From: Candidatus Kaiserbacteria bacterium
GTDB taxonomy: Bacteria; Patescibacteriota; Minisyncoccia; Phycocordibacterales; UBA2100
DNA: 64,000 nucleotides
NCBI GenBank assembly: GCA_016217925.1
Contig: JACRFK010000004.1
Coordinates: forward strand, 46,435 to 110,434
Direction of reading: 5' to 3'
The translations under genes and the position numbers were made by a program. This document shows positions 3,105-38,292 of the stretch, piece after piece (position 1 is the first letter of the stretch; each line of letters begins with the position of its first letter). The notes under the pieces were generated by a model. It was not told where the DNA came from and made no database searches. It was given only the letters and a program-made list of their open reading frames with translations.

Positions 3105-6074
3105 TTATTCGAATTCGATAATCGTGCTCGTAGCCTTTTGCAGCTCAGCGAGATACTTCTCGAGAATCGTCCGACTCTCTGGAGAAACTTTAAGCCGGTG
3201 CGTGGCAGATTCTCCGGGCTTCATGTTTTGTGATTTCCTGAACGCCTGTATCTCGCGAATGGTGTCGCGCACGAGCCCCTCTTCACGCAGTTCGTCCGTA
3301 ATGTTCGTGTCAAGCGCGACGCCATCGCCTGTCCGTTCCACCTTTTTCACGTTCACCTCGTCGGCGACGATAGAAAGATACTTATCGGCAAGCTTCGTAC
3401 CGCGCGGGATCGAGAGCGTCGCTAGCGGCTGGCGGACCTTTATCTTCGCTGCGTCGCGTGCTTCGAGCGCTTTCGTCACGATGGCGCGCGCGGCCTCCAT
3501 GGCTTCAAGAAGTTCTTTGTCCTTATTCGTGCCCCCGAACAGCCGCGCGAAGAATCCTGTCGGCACGGAGACTTCGGGCCACATTGCGAGGTGCACACTT
3601 TCTTCATCTTCGCTTTCACGTACCGCTTGAAAGAGGTGCTCCGCAAAGAAAGGCGTCGCAGGAGCCATCACGAGCGAGAGACGATGGAGCACGTAGCGCA
3701 ACGTCGCAAGTGCCGCCGTTTTATCTGGACCGTCTTCTTTAAAACGTTCACGACTTCTTCGGAGGTACCACACGGAAAGGTCGTCGATGAATTTGGGAAG
3801 CGGTCGCGCCGCAGCATCGAGCTGATAGCTCTCGTAACCCTGTGTCGTCGCGATGATGCACTCATCGAGGCGCGCAATTATCCATCTGTCTAAGATGTTC
3901 GAACTATTCCAATCACGCGGAGTGTCATCATTGTAGAGCTGCCAGAATGCGAGCACATTGCCGAGGCGGCCGATGTTTTTCTTCGCTACTTCATCGACGC
4001 CGCTTTCGGAAAAACTCAGATTCTCCGCCTGCATGACGGGAGAAGAAAGCAGGTAGAGCCGCAGCGCGTCGGCGCCATATTTCTCCACAACTTCCATCGG
4101 GTCGGGATAATTCTGCAATTTCTTGGACATTTTCTTGCCGTCTTCTGCCAAGACGATGCCGTTCACAATGACGTTTTGAAATGTGTTCTTTTGGAAGAGG
4201 GCGCCGCCGAGCACGTGCAAGTAATAGAACCATGCGCGCGTCTGGTCCAGTCCTTCGGCAATGAACTGCGCGGGGAACGTCGCCTCGAACCGTTCCTTGT
4301 TTTTAAAAGGGTAATGTTTTTCTCCATAAGGCATCGAGCCCGAATCAAACCATGTGTCCAAGACGTCGGGAATTCTTTTCATCGTGCCTGAGCATTTCTC
4401 GCAGTCAAAAGTTACTTCGTCTACTATATGCTTGTGTAGGTCATCAATTGCGCGGCCGCTTGCCTTTTCAAGCTCTTTGGCGCTCCCAAAAACAATCTCG
4501 TGCCCGCATCCCTTGCTGCCAACTGCCAACTGCTTACTGCTAACTGTCCCCATGCAGCGCCACACAGGAATGACGCTCGCCCAGAAACGCTGCCGCGAGA
4601 TAGACCAGTCGCGCGCGCCTTCGAGCCATTTACCGAATCTCCCCTCTTTGATGTGCGACGGCGTCCAATTGACCGCTTCCGCATTTTTGAGGAGATTTTC
4701 TTTTACCTTTGTGACGGAGACGAACCACGATGACGTCGCATAGTTGAGGAGCGGCGTATCGCAGCGCCAACAATGCGGATACGAGTGGGTGATATTTTCT
4801 TTCGAGAAAAACAAGCCTTTGTCCTGTAAGTATTTGAGTACGGCGATATCGGTACCGAGCCGTTCTTTGTCGTCATCAGAGCGCGGCTTGACCTCCATGC
4901 CCGCGAAATCTTTTACTTCGGGCTTCATCGTTCCGTCCATATTGACGTGCTGGACGAACGGCAGGTTCTCTCTCTTGGAAAGTTCCCAGTCATCGGCACC
5001 AAAAGCGGGCGCTTCATGCGCGATACCCGTGCCCGCGTCGGTCGTAATGAAATCCGCCGTGTATACTTTCCACCCGTTCTCGCGATTTTTGAGCGTTGTG
5101 TCGCTGCTGTAGTAGTCGAACGGCGGCCTGTATTTTTTGCCGACGAGCTCGTTGCCCTTCACCTCCGAAACGACTTGCGCGTCTTGTAGATCTTTTTGAT
5201 AGCGGTCGAGCGCTGCTTTCGCGAGAATGTAGGTACCCGACTTCGCCCTGACCTTCACATAGTCAATATCGCCTTTCACCGCAAGCGCGGTATTTCCGGG
5301 CAGCGTCCACGGAGTCGTCGTCCACGCCAAGAAATACGTCCCTGGTTCTTCCACGAGTTCGAATTTCAGAGTGACTGAAATATCTTTCATATCTTTGTAC
5401 CCTTCCGCGACTTCCTGTTGAGAGAGCGTCGTCTCGCAGCGCGGGCAGATGTGCATTGAACGGTAATCCTCGTAGACCAGTCCTTTGTCGTATATCTGTT
5501 TGAATACCCACCAGACGGATTCCATGAACGGCTTGTCCATCGTGCGGTACGCGTGCTCCATATCGGCCCAGCGGCCGATGCGCGGGACAATCTTTTCCCA
5601 ATCGGATGCAAATGTAAGTACGCGGGCTCGGCACGTCTCGTTGAATTTTGCGATACCGAATTCTTTTATGTCTTTCTTGTGCTTAAAACCGAGCTCTTTC
5701 TCAACGATGTTTTCTATGGGCAATCCGTGACAATCCCAGCCCCACACACGTGGCACCGAGTAGCCGCGCATCGTCCAGAATCGCGGTACGACGTCTTTGA
5801 TGACCGAGGCGACGATGTGGCCATAGTGCGGCAAGCCCGTAGCGAACGGGGGGCCATCGTAAAAAACGTATTCCCCCTTCGGGGCATCTTTTTTGACCGA
5901 TTTATTGAAAATGTCGTTCTCCTTCCAGAATTTCAGTGTTTTCTCTTCCCGCCGTGCCGTCTCGTTTTTTTGCCGGTTTTCCTCCATTCGTACTATCGTA
6001 GCAGAGAGAACAGGCTGCCGCGAGGTTAAGCCGTCTGTAGCTGAGCGCAGTTCGAGGCGCGGAGAAAACAACAT
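3105..6074 (-). CDS. ileS: isoleucyl-tRNA synthetase
   Basis: Class I aaRS: HIGH-type motif PHYGH, KMSKS variant KMSKK, large editing insertion; 989 aa as called. True start is probably the internal Met (MEENRQKNETARREEK..., ~5987). Confidence 0.93.
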   Translation of the reverse strand: MLFSPRLELRSATDGLTSRQPVLSATIVRMEENRQKNETARREEKTLKFWKENDIFNKSVKKDAPKGEYVFYDGPPFATGLPHYGHIVASVIKDVVPRFWTMRGYSVPRVWGWDCHGLPIENIVEKELGFKHKKDIKEFGIAKFNETCRARVLTFASDWEKIVPRIGRWADMEHAYRTMDKPFMESVWWVFKQIYDKGLVYEDYRSMHICPRCETTLSQQEVAEGYKDMKDISVTLKFELVEEPGTYFLAWTTTPWTLPGNTALAVKGDIDYVKVRAKSGTYILAKAALDRYQKDLQDAQVVSEVKGNELVGKKYRPPFDYYSSDTTLKNRENGWKVYTADFITTDAGTGIAHEAPAFGADDWELSKRENLPFVQHVNMDGTMKPEVKDFAGMEVKPRSDDDKERLGTDIAVLKYLQDKGLFFSKENITHSYPHCWRCDTPLLNYATSSWFVSVTKVKENLLKNAEAVNWTPSHIKEGRFGKWLEGARDWSISRQRFWASVIPVWRCMGTVSSKQLAVGSKGCGHEIVFGSAKELEKASGRAIDDLHKHIVDEVTFDCEKCSGTMKRIPDVLDTWFDSGSMPYGEKHYPFKNKERFEATFPAQFIAEGLDQTRAWFYYLHVLGGALFQKNTFQNVIVNGIVLAEDGKKMSKKLQNYPDPMEVVEKYGADALRLYLLSSPVMQAENLSFSESGVDEVAKKNIGRLGNVLAFWQLYNDDTPRDWNSSNILDRWIIARLDECIIATTQGYESYQLDAAARPLPKFIDDLSVWYLRRSRERFKEDGPDKTAALATLRYVLHRLSLVMAPATPFFAEHLFQAVRESEDEESVHLAMWPEVSVPTGFFARLFGGTNKDKELLEAMEAARAIVTKALEARDAAKIKVRQPLATLSIPRGTKLADKYLSIVADEVNVKKVERTGDGVALDTNITDELREEGLVRDTIREIQAFRKSQNMKPGESATHRLKVSPESRTILEKYLAELQKATSTIIEFE

Positions 6075-9460: not shown

Positions 9461-10279
9461 TTAGCGAATCTCGTACGTGACCGTCACGTTCGACGTGATC
9501 TTGTTTTGGCCGACGGCGATTTCCGGAGACGGCGGCACTGCGGAATCCATGGCACCTCCCATTCCCAATGCCATCGTCTTGGCGTAGTACATCCGCCCGT
9601 CTCCTCCGTTCTCGGAGAACCCGACGACGCGTACGATGTCTACCCCGAGCGCATCGGCGAGCACCTCCGCTTTAGCCTGTGCTTTTGCGATAGCCTTGTC
9701 ACGCGCTTCCGCATCGAGCTTGTCCTGGTCGTCTATGGTAAACGAGAGACCGGAAACCGACGAAGCACCCTTCGAGCCGACGCCTGCGAGCAGATCGCCC
9801 GCCTTCTTTGCATCACGAACTTTTATCGTGAGCGTCTCCGACACCTGAAAACCGCGTAACACTTGCTTGCCCGGCGGGCAGTAGCCTCCGGAACATACAC
9901 TGTTGGTGTAATCGTATTGCGGATATACGCTGTAATCGGTTGTCTGAATATCTTTTTCATCGATACCCTGCGATTTCAGATACGCTTTGATGTCGTTGCT
10001 CTTCTTCGTCGCGACCTCCTGGGCGGCCTTTACGTCTTTTGCTTCCTCCTGGACCGTCACCGAGAATGTTGCAGTGTCGGGCACCGCAAAAACTTCGCCG
10101 TCGCCCGAGACGGTGATGGTGTTCGATGCGGCCACGCCGCTCCCAATATAGTGGTATTGCTTGAGCGAGGAGAGCGTGAGCACCAGGAGGAACACCCCCA
10201 ACATCGAGAGCGCAAACATTCCCGCCATCTGCATTCTGTGCGGCGGCATGATGTGTATCTCTTTTTTCTCAATATCCAT
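9461..10279 (-). CDS. SIMPL-domain (DUF541, BP26/OMP28-like) membrane-anchored periplasmic protein
   Basis: 272 aa; N-terminal TM helix then SIMPL-like domain (..ITVSGDGEVFAVPDTATFSVTVQEEAKDVKAAQ..). Confidence 0.7.
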   Translation of the reverse strand: MDIEKKEIHIMPPHRMQMAGMFALSMLGVFLLVLTLSSLKQYHYIGSGVAASNTITVSGDGEVFAVPDTATFSVTVQEEAKDVKAAQEVATKKSNDIKAYLKSQGIDEKDIQTTDYSVYPQYDYTNSVCSGGYCPPGKQVLRGFQVSETLTIKVRDAKKAGDLLAGVGSKGASSVSGLSFTIDDQDKLDAEARDKAIAKAQAKAEVLADALGVDIVRVVGFSENGGDGRMYYAKTMALGMGGAMDSAVPPSPEIAVGQNKITSNVTVTYEIR

Positions 10280-10419
10280 ATAAAAATAACTCTTAACTAC
10301 TAGTAAACACAGTATAACACCGTGCGAAGACTAATGACGTTCGTATGAAGATTTTCTTACTGACTCCTCGGCTCAGTTTACCGGGAATGATCTAGAGTCC
10401 CTCAAGCGAACCACATAGC

Positions 10420-10718
10420 CTGCTAGAACGTCGGGATAGCGAAGACAAGGCCCAAGAGTGGCAACGCGAAGACCACAAGGCGAGATATTCGCCTGTCGAA
10501 TTCTCAAATCCGCACTGGCGTGCGCTCGGAAGCCCTTTCTCCGGCTCAAAGACCGCGCGCGCCGTGCTCTCGGGCTACCTCGGCCGTGCGGTCGGAAGAC
10601 GCATTATCCACAACGAGGATCTCGCGGAATTTCCCCCCGGAATATTTTTTGCGATATCGACGGTCTCCCCGATAACCGATTCTTCATTGTGGGCGCAAAT
10701 GATGAGCGTGATGTCCAT
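10420..10718 (-). pseudogene. family-2 glycosyltransferase remnant (frameshifted, truncated)
   Basis: Minus-strand ATG at 10718 gives MDITLIICAHNEESVIGETVDIAKNIPGG, a GT2 N-terminus. The downstream GT2 motif EILVVDNASSDRTAEVAREHG appears only in the +1 frame after a G7 homopolymer (plus-strand C7 at ~10627-10633). A second shift at a (CG)4 tract restores ..VFEPEKGLPSARQCGFENSTGEYLAL, and then the DxD region is missing. Confidence 0.6.
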
Positions 10719-10785
10719 ATTTTAGGCGGGACACTTTTCCGAGAGGCGGACAATTGCAGGAGTTTGCATGGCACTATTATACCCT

Positions 10786-10810
10786 CCCTTTTCTCTGGGC
10801 GACTATCGGG
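10786..10810 (-). other. isolated tRNA 3'-end-like fragment (T-arm + acceptor 3' strand + CCA) immediately downstream of tRNA-His
   Basis: Minus-strand read AGGGTTCAATTCCCGATAGTCGCCCA: a GGTTCAATTCC T-loop-like motif followed by an acceptor strand and CCA. No matching 5' half nearby. Confidence 0.35.
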
Positions 10811-10833
10811 AATTGAACCCTGAAAAAACTTAC

Positions 10834-10909
10834 GGGGGCGGTTGTCGAGAGTTGAACTCGAATCGAGTGCTCCACAAGCACCAATGTTAACCGTTACACC
10901 ACAACCGCC
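10834..10909 (-). tRNA. tRNA-His (GTG)
   Basis: Hand-folded cloverleaf. G-1 with 8-bp acceptor stem GGCGGTTG/CAACCGCC, D-arm GTGT-AACGGTTA-ACAT, anticodon stem GGTGC/GCACT with loop TTGTGGA (GTG), T-arm TCGAG-TTCAACT-CTCGA. CCA is not encoded. Confidence 0.8.
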
Positions 10910-10973
10910 ATCGAACTCTTGAGTTATAGCAAATTCGGCACTAGTACGCGACTTTATGCCCGGTGTGGTGCGC

Positions 10974-12074
10974 CTAATTTTGCTTCTCGACGACAGGAAC
11001 GGGTGCGGGGACATCGACGACGGTGAGCGATATCCGCCCGATGATTTGACCGTATTGCGTTATCACGTTGACCCTCCACTTCCCCCCTGAAATATCCTTG
11101 ATGTACGAGTACCCGCGATAGCCGCCGTCGCGCCCGCCTTGAATCGGATAGCGGACGGTGGCATGCGTTAGCCACGTGCCGGTCGCAGCGTCGTAGCGCT
11201 GCCACTCATGGAGGATGACGGTGGAAATGCCCGTTGGGGCAAATACCGCGCTGAACGCGTATGCAATTTGCCCCGGTGCGTGATGAAAGACGGTGCCGTA
11301 CGGCAAATATTTTTCATACCATGACGAGTCTTCCCCTCCGAGGTAGAAAATGTTGTCCTGGCCGCGTTCGACGCTGTGGTACACACCGGCGGCCTTGAGC
11401 GCAAGTGGCAAGGGCGGTATCGCATTGGAGAAATAGAGGATGTTGAAGATGATGAATATGGCCGCGATGGTCCGCGCGATACGCGTGCGCTCTGCTAGGA
11501 GCTCCGGCATAAGAAGGAACATCGGGCGGAGAAACAGGAAGATTATAACGAGGCTCGTAGCGCCGCTTATGACAAACATCCACGGCCCGATCCGGTCAAA
11601 TACGATCGGAAGAAAAAAGATAAGGAACGAAAAGAGAACGGTGAAGAGCATCGATACTTGGAATGAGAATTTCATATACTGCCGCACGAAGCGCTCGTTG
11701 CCTAAAAGTAGTGCAGTGACGATGACAACGAATACCCAACTCAAAGGAAAGCTAGCACTGCGACTATAGAGTGACAGGTAGCCCGAGAAGAGCCCGCCAA
11801 AAGCGAATTGTGTAACGACCGGGATGAGCGGCGTGACCTTGAGGACCCATGGGGCGCGGATGCGGCCCGTCGTGATGAGATTCAGCACGACGATACTTAT
11901 CGCCGCAAGCGCGAGATAGGAGAACAACAGCGCATTACTCGTCCAAACATCCACGCGGCGCAGGAGGATGAGATTGTCCGCGAAGAATCCGGCAATGAGC
12001 GCGAGCGGTGAGATGTAGCGCATGTACCACCACGCTAACTCCTCGATATTCTTGGGCACGTAGCGGCGGATCAT
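10974..12074 (-). CDS. polytopic integral membrane protein with C-terminal extracytoplasmic beta-rich domain, function unknown
   Basis: 366 aa; at least 8 predicted hydrophobic helices, then a soluble C-terminal ~110 aa (..HEWQRYDAATGTW..GKWRVNV..). Confidence 0.55.
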   Translation of the reverse strand: MIRRYVPKNIEELAWWYMRYISPLALIAGFFADNLILLRRVDVWTSNALLFSYLALAAISIVVLNLITTGRIRAPWVLKVTPLIPVVTQFAFGGLFSGYLSLYSRSASFPLSWVFVVIVTALLLGNERFVRQYMKFSFQVSMLFTVLFSFLIFFLPIVFDRIGPWMFVISGATSLVIIFLFLRPMFLLMPELLAERTRIARTIAAIFIIFNILYFSNAIPPLPLALKAAGVYHSVERGQDNIFYLGGEDSSWYEKYLPYGTVFHHAPGQIAYAFSAVFAPTGISTVILHEWQRYDAATGTWLTHATVRYPIQGGRDGGYRGYSYIKDISGGKWRVNVITQYGQIIGRISLTVVDVPAPVPVVEKQN

Positions 12075-12634
12075 ACGTCCTTGTACGCGGGCGGGTCCTC
12101 GGCAACTCCGGCGCGATGATTGACCAGGCGCGTGAGTGCGTAGAGGAGCGAAGACAAACGGTTGGCGTATGCGCGGCTCGAAGCGCTCACCTCACGCTCC
12201 CCCGATTCATGCAATGCGACGAGCCGGCGCTCAGCGCGCCGTGCGACCGCACGCGCGATATCGAGACGTGACGAAAGCTCCGTCCCGCCGGGAACGAGGA
12301 ATGTTTTTATCGGTGGCATTTCCCCTTCTATGCGGTTGATGAGGACGCCGAGCGCTTCGACGCTCGAAAGCGGAATGGATTTGGGCGCACCGGCGACTTC
12401 CGCCTGCAGCGTAAAGAGATGGTTCTGCACATCGTGCAGCAGCATCTTCACTTTCTGTTCCTGAGCAATGAGGTCGTCGGGACACTCGGCCTTGCACCAA
12501 CCGACGAGAGTGTTTAACTCATCGAGCATGCCCAAGCATTCAAATATCGGGCTCGCTTTACTCGCCCGATTTCCCGGCCCGGAGTCAAAGAGTTTGGTCG
12601 AGCCGCCGTCGCCTTTCCCAGTAAAGAGTGCCAT
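12071..12634 (-). CDS. ATP:cob(I)alamin adenosyltransferase, PduO type
   Basis: 187 aa; N-terminal TGKGDGGSTKL and DELNTLVG motifs match the PduO/MMAB family signature (TxxGDxGxTxL ... DELN). Confidence 0.8.
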   Translation of the reverse strand: MALFTGKGDGGSTKLFDSGPGNRASKASPIFECLGMLDELNTLVGWCKAECPDDLIAQEQKVKMLLHDVQNHLFTLQAEVAGAPKSIPLSSVEALGVLINRIEGEMPPIKTFLVPGGTELSSRLDIARAVARRAERRLVALHESGEREVSASSRAYANRLSSLLYALTRLVNHRAGVAEDPPAYKDV

Positions 12635-15183: not shown

Positions 15184-15497
15184 GTAGCAATACTATACCA
15201 AAGCGATGGCCCCGCTCGTAATCAACGATAAGCGGGACCAAAATACCTGAGTTTTGTGAACATGAGCGAGAGAGTCTGACTATCTGCCCACGCGATGACC
15301 GCGAAACCAACCATCATGCACAGGCAAAACATGAGGGTCGAAAGCACTCGACTTTTTGACGGGAAAAACCTTTCAACCGCCAGCCAGAGTACGAAGCCTC
15401 CGGCAAGGCCAAGAAACCACATGGGGCACCTCACACAACAGTTACAACTGCCTTGTGTATACAGGGTTAGCAACCGAACGTCAACAAAAACTCTTTG

Positions 15498-15579
15498 TGC
15501 GCAGGGGGGGACTCGAACCCCCATGCCGTGAGGCACACGCACCTCAAGCGTGCTGGTCTACCAATTTCCACACCTGCGC
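15498..15579 (-). tRNA. tRNA-Leu (GAG), class II with long variable arm
   Basis: Acceptor GCGCAGG/CCTGCGC, anticodon stem CACGC/GCGTG with loop TTGAGGT (GAG), long variable arm, T-arm GGGGG-TTCGAGT-CCCCC, discriminator A. Confidence 0.8.
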
Positions 15580-15581
15580 AT

Positions 15582-16259
15582 TTACAACTGCTCGCCTACT
15601 ATAGCTAACATTTGCTGTATTTTCAAACGCTTCCGCGATAGATACACCGGACTGGGTCCGGCATACATTTTTCGCAAAATTTGGAGACTTTCACGTTTTG
15701 CGTACTTCAACTGCATGCACGCATTCTTTTTGACGGGGCCGGTTACGTGGCCGTGTGCGCCTGTTCGTAATTCAATGCTCTTCCGTAACCAATTAAGAAA
15801 TGTGGAACTCGCTGAGGCAAAAATGAGATAAAACATGAAGCTTGATTTCCATCGAGGATCCCAATACGAGTGGGTGCAACCATCTCCATCAAAGACACCC
15901 CGCAAAAAGTGGAAAAAATATTTGTCAGGAACTTTAATGGGGCCGAGCGTCTTCGATTTAGAAGGAGTAAGACCGACTGATAATAAAAAATTATAAAAAA
16001 GAACGCTCCTAAACTGAATACGCAGGGCCTTTTTCGTCGTCGAGGATTTCTTGGCTGTAATCCGAAAATCAACGTCGACACACCGATTGAAATTTTCCAG
16101 CTGCTCGCGATCGGTCGATGTTAAATCAATAAGTGTAGATTTCGAGGCTAGACAGCCGTCGGTTGCTAATAAACCAATGGCGTACGCAAGCCTCGGCGAC
16201 CACAATTGTGAAATCCTTCTTTTTGCATTAAATCCAGGTTTTGGTCCTCTCTTCCCCAT
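15582..16259 (-). CDS. LAGLIDADG homing endonuclease, double-motif (monomeric) type
   Basis: 225 aa; motif 1 LAYAIGLLATDGCL and motif 2 FLRGVFDGDGCTH. Its stop codon lies 2 nt upstream of the tRNA-Leu 5' end on the same strand. Confidence 0.8.
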   Translation of the reverse strand: MGKRGPKPGFNAKRRISQLWSPRLAYAIGLLATDGCLASKSTLIDLTSTDREQLENFNRCVDVDFRITAKKSSTTKKALRIQFRSVLFYNFLLSVGLTPSKSKTLGPIKVPDKYFFHFLRGVFDGDGCTHSYWDPRWKSSFMFYLIFASASSTFLNWLRKSIELRTGAHGHVTGPVKKNACMQLKYAKRESLQILRKMYAGPSPVYLSRKRLKIQQMLAIVGEQL

Positions 16260-37891: not shown

Positions 37892-38019
37892 CAGGTAGAA
37901 AGTCGCAGTTTCATCTGCTAGGATGCAGACGTAAACCCCCCGTAGCCCCGACGCGCAAAGCGGTCGGTGTCCCGACAGCAAGGCTCGTCGGGACTCAGTG
38001 GGGTGTAGAGTATATGTTG

Positions 38020-38090: not shown

Positions 38091-38177
38091 AGCGAGCGAA
38101 GTGAGCTGACCTCCGGTTGGATAGAAAGGGGTCGGGAAAACATTTGTTTTCCCGTGGAGGAAGGAATGGGAAAACCG

Positions 38178-38292
38178 TGGGTTTCCCAGAGCCAACAGGG
38201 GGGATGTGGTCAGAAAATTCTTGCCGCGGCGGCGGCAAAAATATTTGTGACGACAAGAACGAAGTATGGTTTCCCAGAGCCGCCAGGGGGAC
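38178..38292. repeat. two copies of GGTTTCCCAGAGCC[A/G][A/C]CAGGGGG ~87 bp apart, downstream of tRNA-Lys; GC hairpin TTGCCGC-ggcg-GCGGCAA between them
   Basis: Read directly: ..ggtttcccagagccaacagggggg.. (38181) and ..ggtttcccagagccgccaggggga.. (38268), in the convergent gap between tRNA-Lys and gdh. Confidence 0.5.

Follow-up and report, generated by a model that had tools for sequence, protein, structure and literature searches.

A recently decayed glycosyltransferase gene and an orphan tRNA-His tail, probably left by a displaced allele, in a Candidatus Kaiserbacteria genome

The locus described here lies in a 64,000-nucleotide stretch of a Candidatus Kaiserbacteria genome (assembly GCA_016217925.1, contig JACRFK010000004.1, positions 46,435 to 110,434 of the forward strand), referred to below as the window and used as the frame for all positions given without a locus label. 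It consists of a tRNA-His gene, an orphan piece of tRNA 3' end beside it and the remnant of a family-2 glycosyltransferase (GT2) gene, and all of its relevant features are on the minus strand. Read in that direction, genes for a cobalamin adenosyltransferase and a DUF2914 membrane protein are followed by tRNA-His, by 554 nt without an intact gene, and then by a SIMPL gene and secE, nusG and rplK (coordinates are collected in the table). The NCBI annotation of this metagenome-assembled genome (MAG) places in the interval a 47-aa open reading frame (ORF), 10575-10718, named hypothetical protein HY971_02450. A sequence-only reading had called the region a decay and rearrangement hotspot, with a frameshifted glycosyltransferase remnant, slippage tracts, a tRNA fragment of the kind left by integration or excision, and a DnaA box. 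For the comparisons the DUF2914 gene served as the synteny anchor, with which 80 related loci were retrieved; tRNA-His and the orphan tail were compared across 88 related loci, and distances from tRNA-His to SIMPL were taken from 47 relatives. Related loci are cited by their L numbers. The nearest relative with data is L060, whose DUF2914 protein is 88% identical to that of the window, and an independent assembly (Logan, run SRR12113407, locus L001) is identical to the window across the whole region (711 nt), so that the calls on the glycosyltransferase lesions and on the tail rest on two assemblies.

On comparison with relatives, the 554-bp interval is best described as the remains of a conserved cell-envelope gene block of 4-5 kb, which elsewhere comprises a small membrane protein, a 235-aa GT2, membrane proteins, a second GT2, a VTT/DedA-like protein, a PAP2-like protein and a 66-aa membrane ORF. 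Blastn places window positions 10500-10478 on L008:10222-10244 and positions 10476-10433 on L008:14258-14301 (at 91%), and the alignment shows that the intervening ~4.0 kb was lost in one deletion after the split from the nearest sampled relative, fusing GT2 codon 81 to the tail of the 66-aa ORF. Missing relative to L008 are GT2 codons 82-235, two membrane proteins, the second GT2, the VTT/DedA-like protein, the PAP2_C protein and two thirds of the 66-aa ORF, and a search for the lost genes elsewhere in the 64-kb window found none. The small membrane-protein gene of the block was deleted earlier than the GT2: the 15-codon mini-ORF that remains of it keeps the first codons, the last codons and the stop of the intact gene, whose 113-115-aa product has a weak DUF2878 match, and this deletion is common to L002/L060. 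The distance between tRNA-His and SIMPL ranges from 111 nt to 8.2 kb among the 47 relatives, and because the interval has repeatedly been lost and rebuilt, 'hotspot' was a fair word for it.

The GT2 remnant runs from 10718 to 10478 and represents the first 81 codons of a 235-aa gene, intact orthologues of which are found at the same position in L060, L008 and L003. Stitched into a single frame, its N-terminus matches PF00535 at E=4.4e-16 (59.7 bits, profile positions 2-84 of 168) and has homologues at 77-84% identity; aligned with the L060 protein, the corrected remnant is identical at 73/80 positions (7 differences) and contains no internal stop. The sequence-only reading had recognised the N-terminus in the ORF MDITLIICAHNEESVIGETVDIAKNIPGG... 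(10575-10718) and the GT2 signature EILVVDNASSDRTAEV in another frame, and both are indeed there. The frame is not open throughout, being shifted by -1 at 10650/10651 and by -2 at 10555/10554. The first of these switches, located by tblastn with the intact L060 orthologue, falls in GC/AAAAAA: the window reads ATC GC/A AAA AAT ATT CCG GGG GGA, and one base restored after GC gives A-K-K-Y-S-G-G-K-F, the sequence found at this site in the homologue P0001 (AKKYSGGKF). The reading frame had been said to fail exactly at a G7 homopolymer, a claim that has to be corrected on both counts, since the tract is a G6 (10633-10638) and the switch lies ~12 nt upstream of it; GGG GGG here spells in-frame Gly-Gly codons, and the peptide 'AKNIPGG' is already out of frame. 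The second shift had been placed at a (CG)4 tract, which does exist (10554-10561), the lesion itself being a 2-nt deletion at its 3' edge, which may, but need not, reflect the loss of one CG unit. The remnant stops at GEYLA, a single codon short of the DAD of its homologues, and the DxD motif is deleted together with the acceptor half, as the sequence-only reading had supposed for the catalytic region.

Phase variation by homopolymer slippage had been offered as the frame of reference for this gene, and a short G6 and a (CG)4 early in a surface-glycosylation gene are what a contingency glycosyltransferase toggled by slippage in either tract would present. We give this explanation practically no weight, since the frame changes outside the G6 and the second lesion alone touches a tract, the (CG)4; orthologues have GGCGGG, GGAGGG or CGGGGA at the G6 site and hence no conserved homopolymer, and the two assemblies agree. 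Neither tract is unusual in the window, which holds 22 G/C runs of at least 6 nt and 15 tracts of (CG)4 or longer, and after two independent lesions and the loss of two thirds of the gene, DxD included, no tract length would restore a product. The gene appears to have died recently, because its remnant is at least as conserved relative to L060 as is the neighbouring intact DUF2914 (88%). The GT2 thus reads as a recently dead pseudogene and not as a phase switch, and the sequence-only reading, which had itself preferred a truncated pseudogene, was sound on this point.

An origin of the frameshifts, of the junction or of both in faulty assembly or binning deserves a hearing in view of the MAG origin of the sequence and of a scaffolding artefact at the same tRNA in L002, but it is very unlikely. 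An independent assembler gives the identical 711 nt, the deletion junction is internal to contigs of 17.5 kb and 217 kb with syntenic genes on either side, and three separate lesions within 240 nt are atypical of short-read error. The artefact in L002, a public MAG scaffold, is an N-gap at ~9770-9810 flanked by a duplicated 5' part of tRNA-His with its leader; the metagenome contig L060 is uninterrupted there.

A perfect DnaA box had also been remarked upon inside the remnant. The sequence TTATCCACA is present at 10604-10612 on the plus strand and is the single perfect copy in the 64 kb, but the significance suggested for it does not hold: matches with at most one mismatch number 12 against 8.6 +/- 3.0 expected, without clustering in the window, there is no turn of GC skew, and the clustering in AT-rich intergenic DNA that marks an oriC is not seen. 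The match is the reverse complement of the GT2 codons GTT GTG GAT AAT (VVDN), which relatives spell differently, and is a chance match.

The second element of the locus is the orphan piece, a tRNA 3'-end-like sequence that was correctly noticed beside tRNA-His. As a 25-mer (GGGTTCAATTCCCGATAGTCGCCCA, 10796-10820, minus strand) it is unique in the window, and in 100 shuffles there were 0 matches even at 3 mismatches. The first 24 nt comprise the last three bases (GGG) of the T-stem 5' strand, the T-loop, the 3' strands of the T-stem and the acceptor, and the discriminator. These 24 nt recur without a difference (24/24) at the 3' end of the working tRNA-His in L008 and L066, and likewise in the fragments of L063/L065 and L068; against the window's own tRNA-His 3' end only 15/22 positions agree. 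The full-length counterpart for which the sequence-only reading had proposed a search is thus the tRNA-His gene of L008/L066, a B-type gene in the orthologous position with the same GAGGGTATAAT box beyond it, found 16-19 nt after the tRNA-His 3' end in relatives without the fragment. Sequence identity and position together show the orphan piece to be the 3' tail of a tRNA-His allele that relatives still use at the same place.

The working gene of the window is of another type. Allele A, present here, has the acceptor GCGGTTG/CAACCGC and the T-arm TCGAG-TTCAACT-CTCGA, whereas allele B has GCGACTA/TAGTCGC and TCGGG-TTCAATT-CCCGA, the differences between the two being compensatory on both strands. 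The A-type acceptor strands of the window form standard pairs with each other, the 5' strand could pair with the fragment only via wobbles, and because the present 5' acceptor matches its own 3' strand, the whole tRNA-His gene, not just its 3' end, seems to have been exchanged. The gene has G-1 at 10909 and the discriminator C73 at 10837, followed by CCC with no encoded CCA, belongs to the native family and is 100% identical in L002/L060. The resulting layout is a native upstream flank, a complete A gene, CCC with a 13-nt linker, a B tail, and a native downstream flank; linker and tail occur in L002/L060, L063/L065 and L068 and in none of the rest of the 88 loci. No locus among the 88 has two tRNA-His genes, no 5' remnant of an old tRNA-His was found on searching the window, and Rfam scans of the region and of the inserts of two relatives gave credible scores to tRNAs alone. 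Two further observations concern the ends of these sequences. The B-type tRNA-His of L008 encodes CCA (L008:9626-9629, compared with window positions 10834-10837), the orphan tail of the window having C-CA, one C short; and in L063 (~5735-5915, the same in L065) an insertion of ~180 nt with direct repeats GGGTATAA is located within the promoter-like box that immediately follows the orphan tail.

What such an exchange might involve is suggested by the relatives, in which the gap between DUF2914 and tRNA-His is bimodal (~65-150 nt or ~570-770 nt). In 17 of them the long gap holds an ORF of ~166 aa whose stop codon comes 2 nt ahead of G-1 of tRNA-His, and whose product combines two FCS/TRASH-type zinc fingers with an invariant C-terminal CxxC...HH...N...CxxCH...H pattern. 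HNH models score just below threshold on it (PF13392 21.5 bits, cut-off 24.8; PF01844 19.3 bits, cut-off 21.4), the HNH region of IscB matches at E=1e-5 in 9/10 members, and I-HmuI and the En domain of group II maturases give weak matches (E=0.1-0.2). Among viral contigs the protein found a partial match to its zinc finger alone. The ORF is horizontally mobile, since it is patchy in the relatives and its phylogeny is discordant with that of the hosts: L067 and L124 share 90% identity in the HNH protein and 59% in DUF2914, and L088 and L112 share 52% and 94%, respectively. When the ORF is absent, the slot between DUF2914 and tRNA-His often holds a gene for a small membrane protein of ~130 aa (MVQKLAWVFGIV..., for example in L075, L096, L120 and L134), so that two unrelated genes alternate there.

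The tRNA-His genes next to the HNH ORF are distinctive in turn. A divergent type with the D-arm TAGCTCAATTGGTAGAGCT is found at 14/17 HNH loci and 6/69 others (p=5e-9), and tails of native type within 60 nt downstream at 5/17 and 5/69 (p=0.02), the linkers and the starting points of the tails differing between lineages (L068, L082, L112, L124/126). In L088 and L013 the 5' half of the resident gene, from G-1 through the anticodon loop (...CTTGTGG), stands upstream of the HNH ORF; L013 has this 5' half, and L088 has both 5' and 3' resident remnants flanking the insert. These HNH loci look like cassettes that split the resident tRNA-His and supply a replacement for it. An alternative description as group I introns was rejected, the 3' exon being incomplete and a second full tRNA present. 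L068 ties the cassettes to the window: it has an HNH gene and a C-type tRNA-His, and behind these come the linker and the B tail seen in the window. We found no description in the literature of HNH/tRNA-His cassettes.

Taken together, we consider it probable that the locus combines a recent pseudogene, produced by the 4-kb deletion and small frameshifts, with the tail of a displaced tRNA-His, the replacement and the part played by a nuclease being steps that we infer. The resident B-type gene would have been overwritten from its 5' side by recombination with a foreign allele, leaving its tail behind, and the initiating break may, less securely, have been made by the mobile HNH endonuclease that occupies the tRNA-His site of relatives. 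Its gene could later have been lost by recombination, or may never have been co-converted, the tRNA part alone having been copied during repair. A wider and tentative extension, which we hold as a real possibility but do not lean towards, is that homing endonucleases drive the turnover of an essential chromosomal tRNA and that the tail is its footprint, the lineage of the window having passed through this cycle at tRNA-His and since lost the nuclease. Free-standing nuclease genes of Kaiserbacteria, placed directly 5' of a tRNA (HNH with tRNA-His, LAGLIDADG with tRNA-Leu(GAG)), would on this account pass from one lineage to another, disrupting the resident gene and accompanying or shielding a divergent tRNA allele. 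If so, the tail would be perfectly conserved either because it belonged to a working tRNA until recently or because the nuclease still targets it.

Several observations weigh against this history. A search of the 64-kb window for an HNH homologue found none, and, the flank upstream of tRNA-His being native, the evidence for a nuclease all comes from the relatives. Identity at 4-fold sites to L063, L068 and L008 is 0.43-0.44, near saturation, and yet the tail is 24/24 identical, which at that neutral identity has a probability of ~3e-9 per pair. The sister locus L060 has a tail of another allele type (8 differences; 22-24 of 26 identical to the L018 type) at the same TCAGG junction, and the fragment-bearing loci do not form a single clade on the DUF2914 tree. 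One ancient event with subsequent drift does not account for these data, because the tail is conserved beyond neutral DNA and that of L060 differs. The window's tail looks mosaic, its T-stem being mismatched (CAGGG/CCCGA). Three candidate explanations are that each lineage had the tail within a working gene until recently, that the tail has been refreshed by recombination in recent or repeated events, and that it is under selection. Recent transfer of a larger patch was rejected as the source of the 24/24 identity, for the flanks on both sides are diverged and L060-like, confining any patch to at most ~35 nt.

The last of these candidates corresponds to a fragment kept for a function, as a -35 or upstream part of a promoter or as a tRNA-like signal in RNA processing, which would be compatible with an origin as a scar. 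The identity across lineages so divergent at 4-fold sites speaks for it, as does the finding that in fragment-less relatives the TAGTCG of the tRNA 3' strand lies 16-19 nt before the conserved TATAAT, a -35 position. The 8 differences in the sister L060, the mismatched T-stem and the death in the window of the operon to be served all count against it; the scan of 10200-11050 for -35/-10 and terminator consensus found no full promoter consensus and nothing useful. We regard such a function as doubtful, though with some chance of being true. Origin from an ancestral tandem pair of tRNA-His genes, whose downstream copy lost its 5' two thirds without any replacement, would give just the expected picture of a full gene, a short spacer and the 3' part of a second gene. 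It is nonetheless unlikely: a pair is seen in 0/88 related loci, the fragment directly precedes native downstream sequence while the full gene directly follows native upstream sequence, it is the fragment and not the full gene that equals the relatives' orthologous single-copy gene, and in L068 the same linker and fragment stand behind a quite different type of tRNA-His with an HNH gene.

The sequence-only reading had favoured a duplication left by integration or excision, and in its fullest form this would have an element in the tRNA-His 3' end duplicate an attachment (att) core and, on imprecise excision, remove the 3' end of the GT2 with its neighbours as well. tRNA 3' ends are classic att sites, the locus is variable, and in other relatives the last 18-19 nt of the tRNA recur as exact direct repeats 130-195 nt downstream of tRNA-His. 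The fragment is, however, no repeat of the adjacent tRNA, from which it differs at 7/22 positions, and it matches another allele throughout; the 5' acceptor, which an att duplication would leave unchanged, has been exchanged too, and 13 nt alone separate tRNA and fragment, with no element between them. The genes called across the 15.8-kb Logan locus L001 include no integrase family, and the 24-mer is absent from the 2.9 million viral contigs of IMG/VR. Finally, because the fragment coexists with an intact GT2 in L060, and the 4-kb deletion starts 320 nt beyond the fragment, inside the GT2, the tRNA event and the gene loss are separate. An integrase-type scar is accordingly improbable, and the displaced-allele account remains the one we prefer.

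Other tRNA genes of the window and its relatives carry associated sequences of their own. An ORF of 225 aa with a LAGLIDADG match (15582-16259, minus strand; PF14528, 31.9 bits) ends 2 nt before tRNA-Leu(GAG) (15497-15579, minus strand). The pairing recurs in 14 related loci (52-77% identical) but not in the closest relative, L002/L060, which has a tRNA-Leu only 69% identical to that of the window. Separately, 24/234 tRNAs (Leu, His, Arg, Val) in related loci are followed by what we call a tail-mimic module of ~100-190 nt, and a further one was found after tRNA-Lys in the window. In order, such a module consists of a terminator-like hairpin, a segment antisense to the last ~20 nt of the tRNA, a two-hairpin core with a conserved GGAGC...GCGAG internal loop and the hairpin loop GCGACGGC, and a copy of the last 18-19 nt of the tRNA, exact in many cases. 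The cores are 82-94% identical across different tRNA species, with the two end segments swapped to fit the host tRNA, and compensatory changes occur in 13/21 consensus pairs of the alignment. Tandem copies are present in L024, L025 and L129. The modules have no Rfam match and we found no description of them in the literature; they could represent a new kind of structured RNA or else a small mobile element. That of the window, after tRNA-Lys(TTT), is 114 nt long (38091-38204, plus strand), with the antisense segment CCTCCGGTTGGA at 38110-38121, two hairpins and a near-exact copy of the last 13 nt, CCAACAGGGGGGA, at 38192-38204; its 68-nt core is 94% identical to that of a tRNA-Leu module in L095, and a partial second copy lies at 38268-38292. 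An 11-nt exact copy of the tRNA-Lys 5' end (CCCCCCGTAGC, 37934-37944, plus strand) precedes the gene by 76 nt; it may have arisen by chance, the sequence being C-rich, or be the relic of an earlier copy. The orphan tRNA-His fragment was also considered as a decayed module and rejected as one, module copies starting inside the T-loop and equalling their own tRNA whereas the fragment has T-stem 5' strand, a whole T-loop and the sequence of another allele.

Taken by itself, the locus is real but ordinary genome decay, at a site that in relatives hosts a mobile nuclease gene. It provides a clean and datable loss of an envelope-glycosylation block in the reductive evolution of a Candidate Phyla Radiation bacterium, and it corrects the annotation, the 'hypothetical protein' of 47 aa being a pseudogene fragment. 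The tRNA fragment is the more informative part, as it appears to record replacement of a whole tRNA-His at the landing site of the relatives' mobile HNH gene. Across ~90 related loci the tRNA genes of the clade emerge as sites of active turnover, with HNH genes at tRNA-His, LAGLIDADG genes at tRNA-Leu and replacement of whole alleles, and with a seemingly retargetable structured module that copies tRNA 3' ends. Were the nuclease link true, this would be a chromosomal case of selfish elements that persist by overwriting an essential single-copy tRNA.

Table. Coordinates of the features discussed, in the window unless a locus label is given
Feature	Position	Strand	Evidence or remark
Cobalamin adenosyltransferase gene	12071-12634	-	
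DUF2914 membrane protein gene	10974-12074	-	PF11141; intact upstream flank
Working tRNA-His(GTG), A-type allele	10834-10909	-	ARAGORN; Rfam tRNA 56.6 bits, E=7e-11
13-nt linker GTAAGTTTTTTCA, tRNA-His to orphan tail	10821-10833	-	Homologous linkers confined to fragment-bearing L002/L060, L063/L065, L068
Orphan tRNA-His 3' fragment, 24-mer	10797-10820	-	Tail of B-type allele
GAGGGTATAAT, conserved -10-like box of downstream operon	10776-10786	-	Kept in window, L002, L008, L003, L012, L062, L068
15-codon mini-ORF	10722-10769	-	In-frame deletion remnant of 113-115-aa small membrane protein gene of L008/L003
GT2 remnant, segment 1: MDITLIICAHNEESVIGETVDIA (22 codons + GC)	10651-10718	-	
A6 run with lesion 1 (1-nt deletion in GCN-AAA-AAA)	10645-10650	-	Frame switch by tblastn; homologues A(K/R)KYSxGKF
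GT2 remnant, segment 2: KKYSGGKFREILVVDNASSDRTAEVAREHGAR	10555-10650	-	Holds in-frame G6 and DnaA-box match
(CG)4 tract; lesion 2 (2-nt deletion) at its edge, 10555/10554	10554-10561		Relatives GCGCGCGCG-TC/TT/CG-GTC
GT2 remnant, segment 3: (V)VFEPEKGLPSARQCGFENSTGEYLA	10478-10554	-	Stops one codon before DAD motif
Deletion junction	10477/10478		Blastn against L008 and alignment; L008:10245-14257 (~4.0 kb) missing in window
Last 17 codons and stop of 66-aa membrane ORF	10423-10477	-	In relatives the last gene before SIMPL in many loci
SIMPL/DUF541 gene	9461-10279	-	PF04402 E=2.9e-55; intact downstream flank
HNH-bearing loci	L068:7011-7679; L088:1083-1848; L013:6406-7158		Old tRNA-His 5' half in L088 at ~1190-1228; also L124, L112, L082
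Example tail-mimic modules	L012:9419-9630 (His); L120:9747-9896 (His); L103:2595-2765 (Arg); L008:5420-5560 (Val, -); L002:7576-7725 (Leu)		

Set beside known systems, the remnant resembles the GT2 (PF00535) pseudogenes of reduced genomes, with a recognisable N-terminal GT-A nucleotide-binding half, small indels and truncation, and it differs from a functional GT2 in keeping 81/235 codons with the DxD and everything beyond gone, which makes it a remnant and not an active member of the family. Phase-variable glycosyltransferase genes of Neisseria, Haemophilus and Campylobacter are homopolymer contingency loci, and the gene in the window shares with them a role in surface glycosylation and, close to the start of the gene, short tracts of G and of CG; here, in contrast, the lesion is outside the G tract, the tract is unconserved and slippage cannot restore the gene. 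Elements with tyrosine integrases leave att duplications in tRNA genes, with sublocations in the anticodon loop, the T-loop and the 3' end. In the window, too, an intact tRNA gene is followed by a partial tRNA 3' end, but this is a different allele, no element or integrase accompanies it, and the whole tRNA, including the 5' acceptor, has been exchanged.

Further parallels are to be found among nuclease genes at tRNAs. HNH-bearing group I introns have been reported in tRNA-Asn of Patescibacteria (PMC13011429). The loci described here share with them the phylum, a tRNA target and an HNH-family ORF, and in L088/L013 the left junction is in the anticodon loop; unlike the introns, these two loci have an incomplete 3' exon (positions ~38-51 missing) and a complete second tRNA-His after the ORF. 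Group I intron models gave no match in three Rfam scans, the HNH-bearing loci themselves being outside those scans. Free-standing homing endonucleases occur in phage tRNA gene clusters, as with T4 SegB and the nucleases of the T5 tRNA region. The present case differs in its setting on a bacterial chromosome, in concerning one essential single-copy tRNA and in the resident pieces that flank the nuclease gene, and the window holds the presumed footprint alone. It is like the phage systems in that the small HNH gene of the relatives adjoins a tRNA, moves horizontally and goes together with allele exchange in the neighbouring tRNA.

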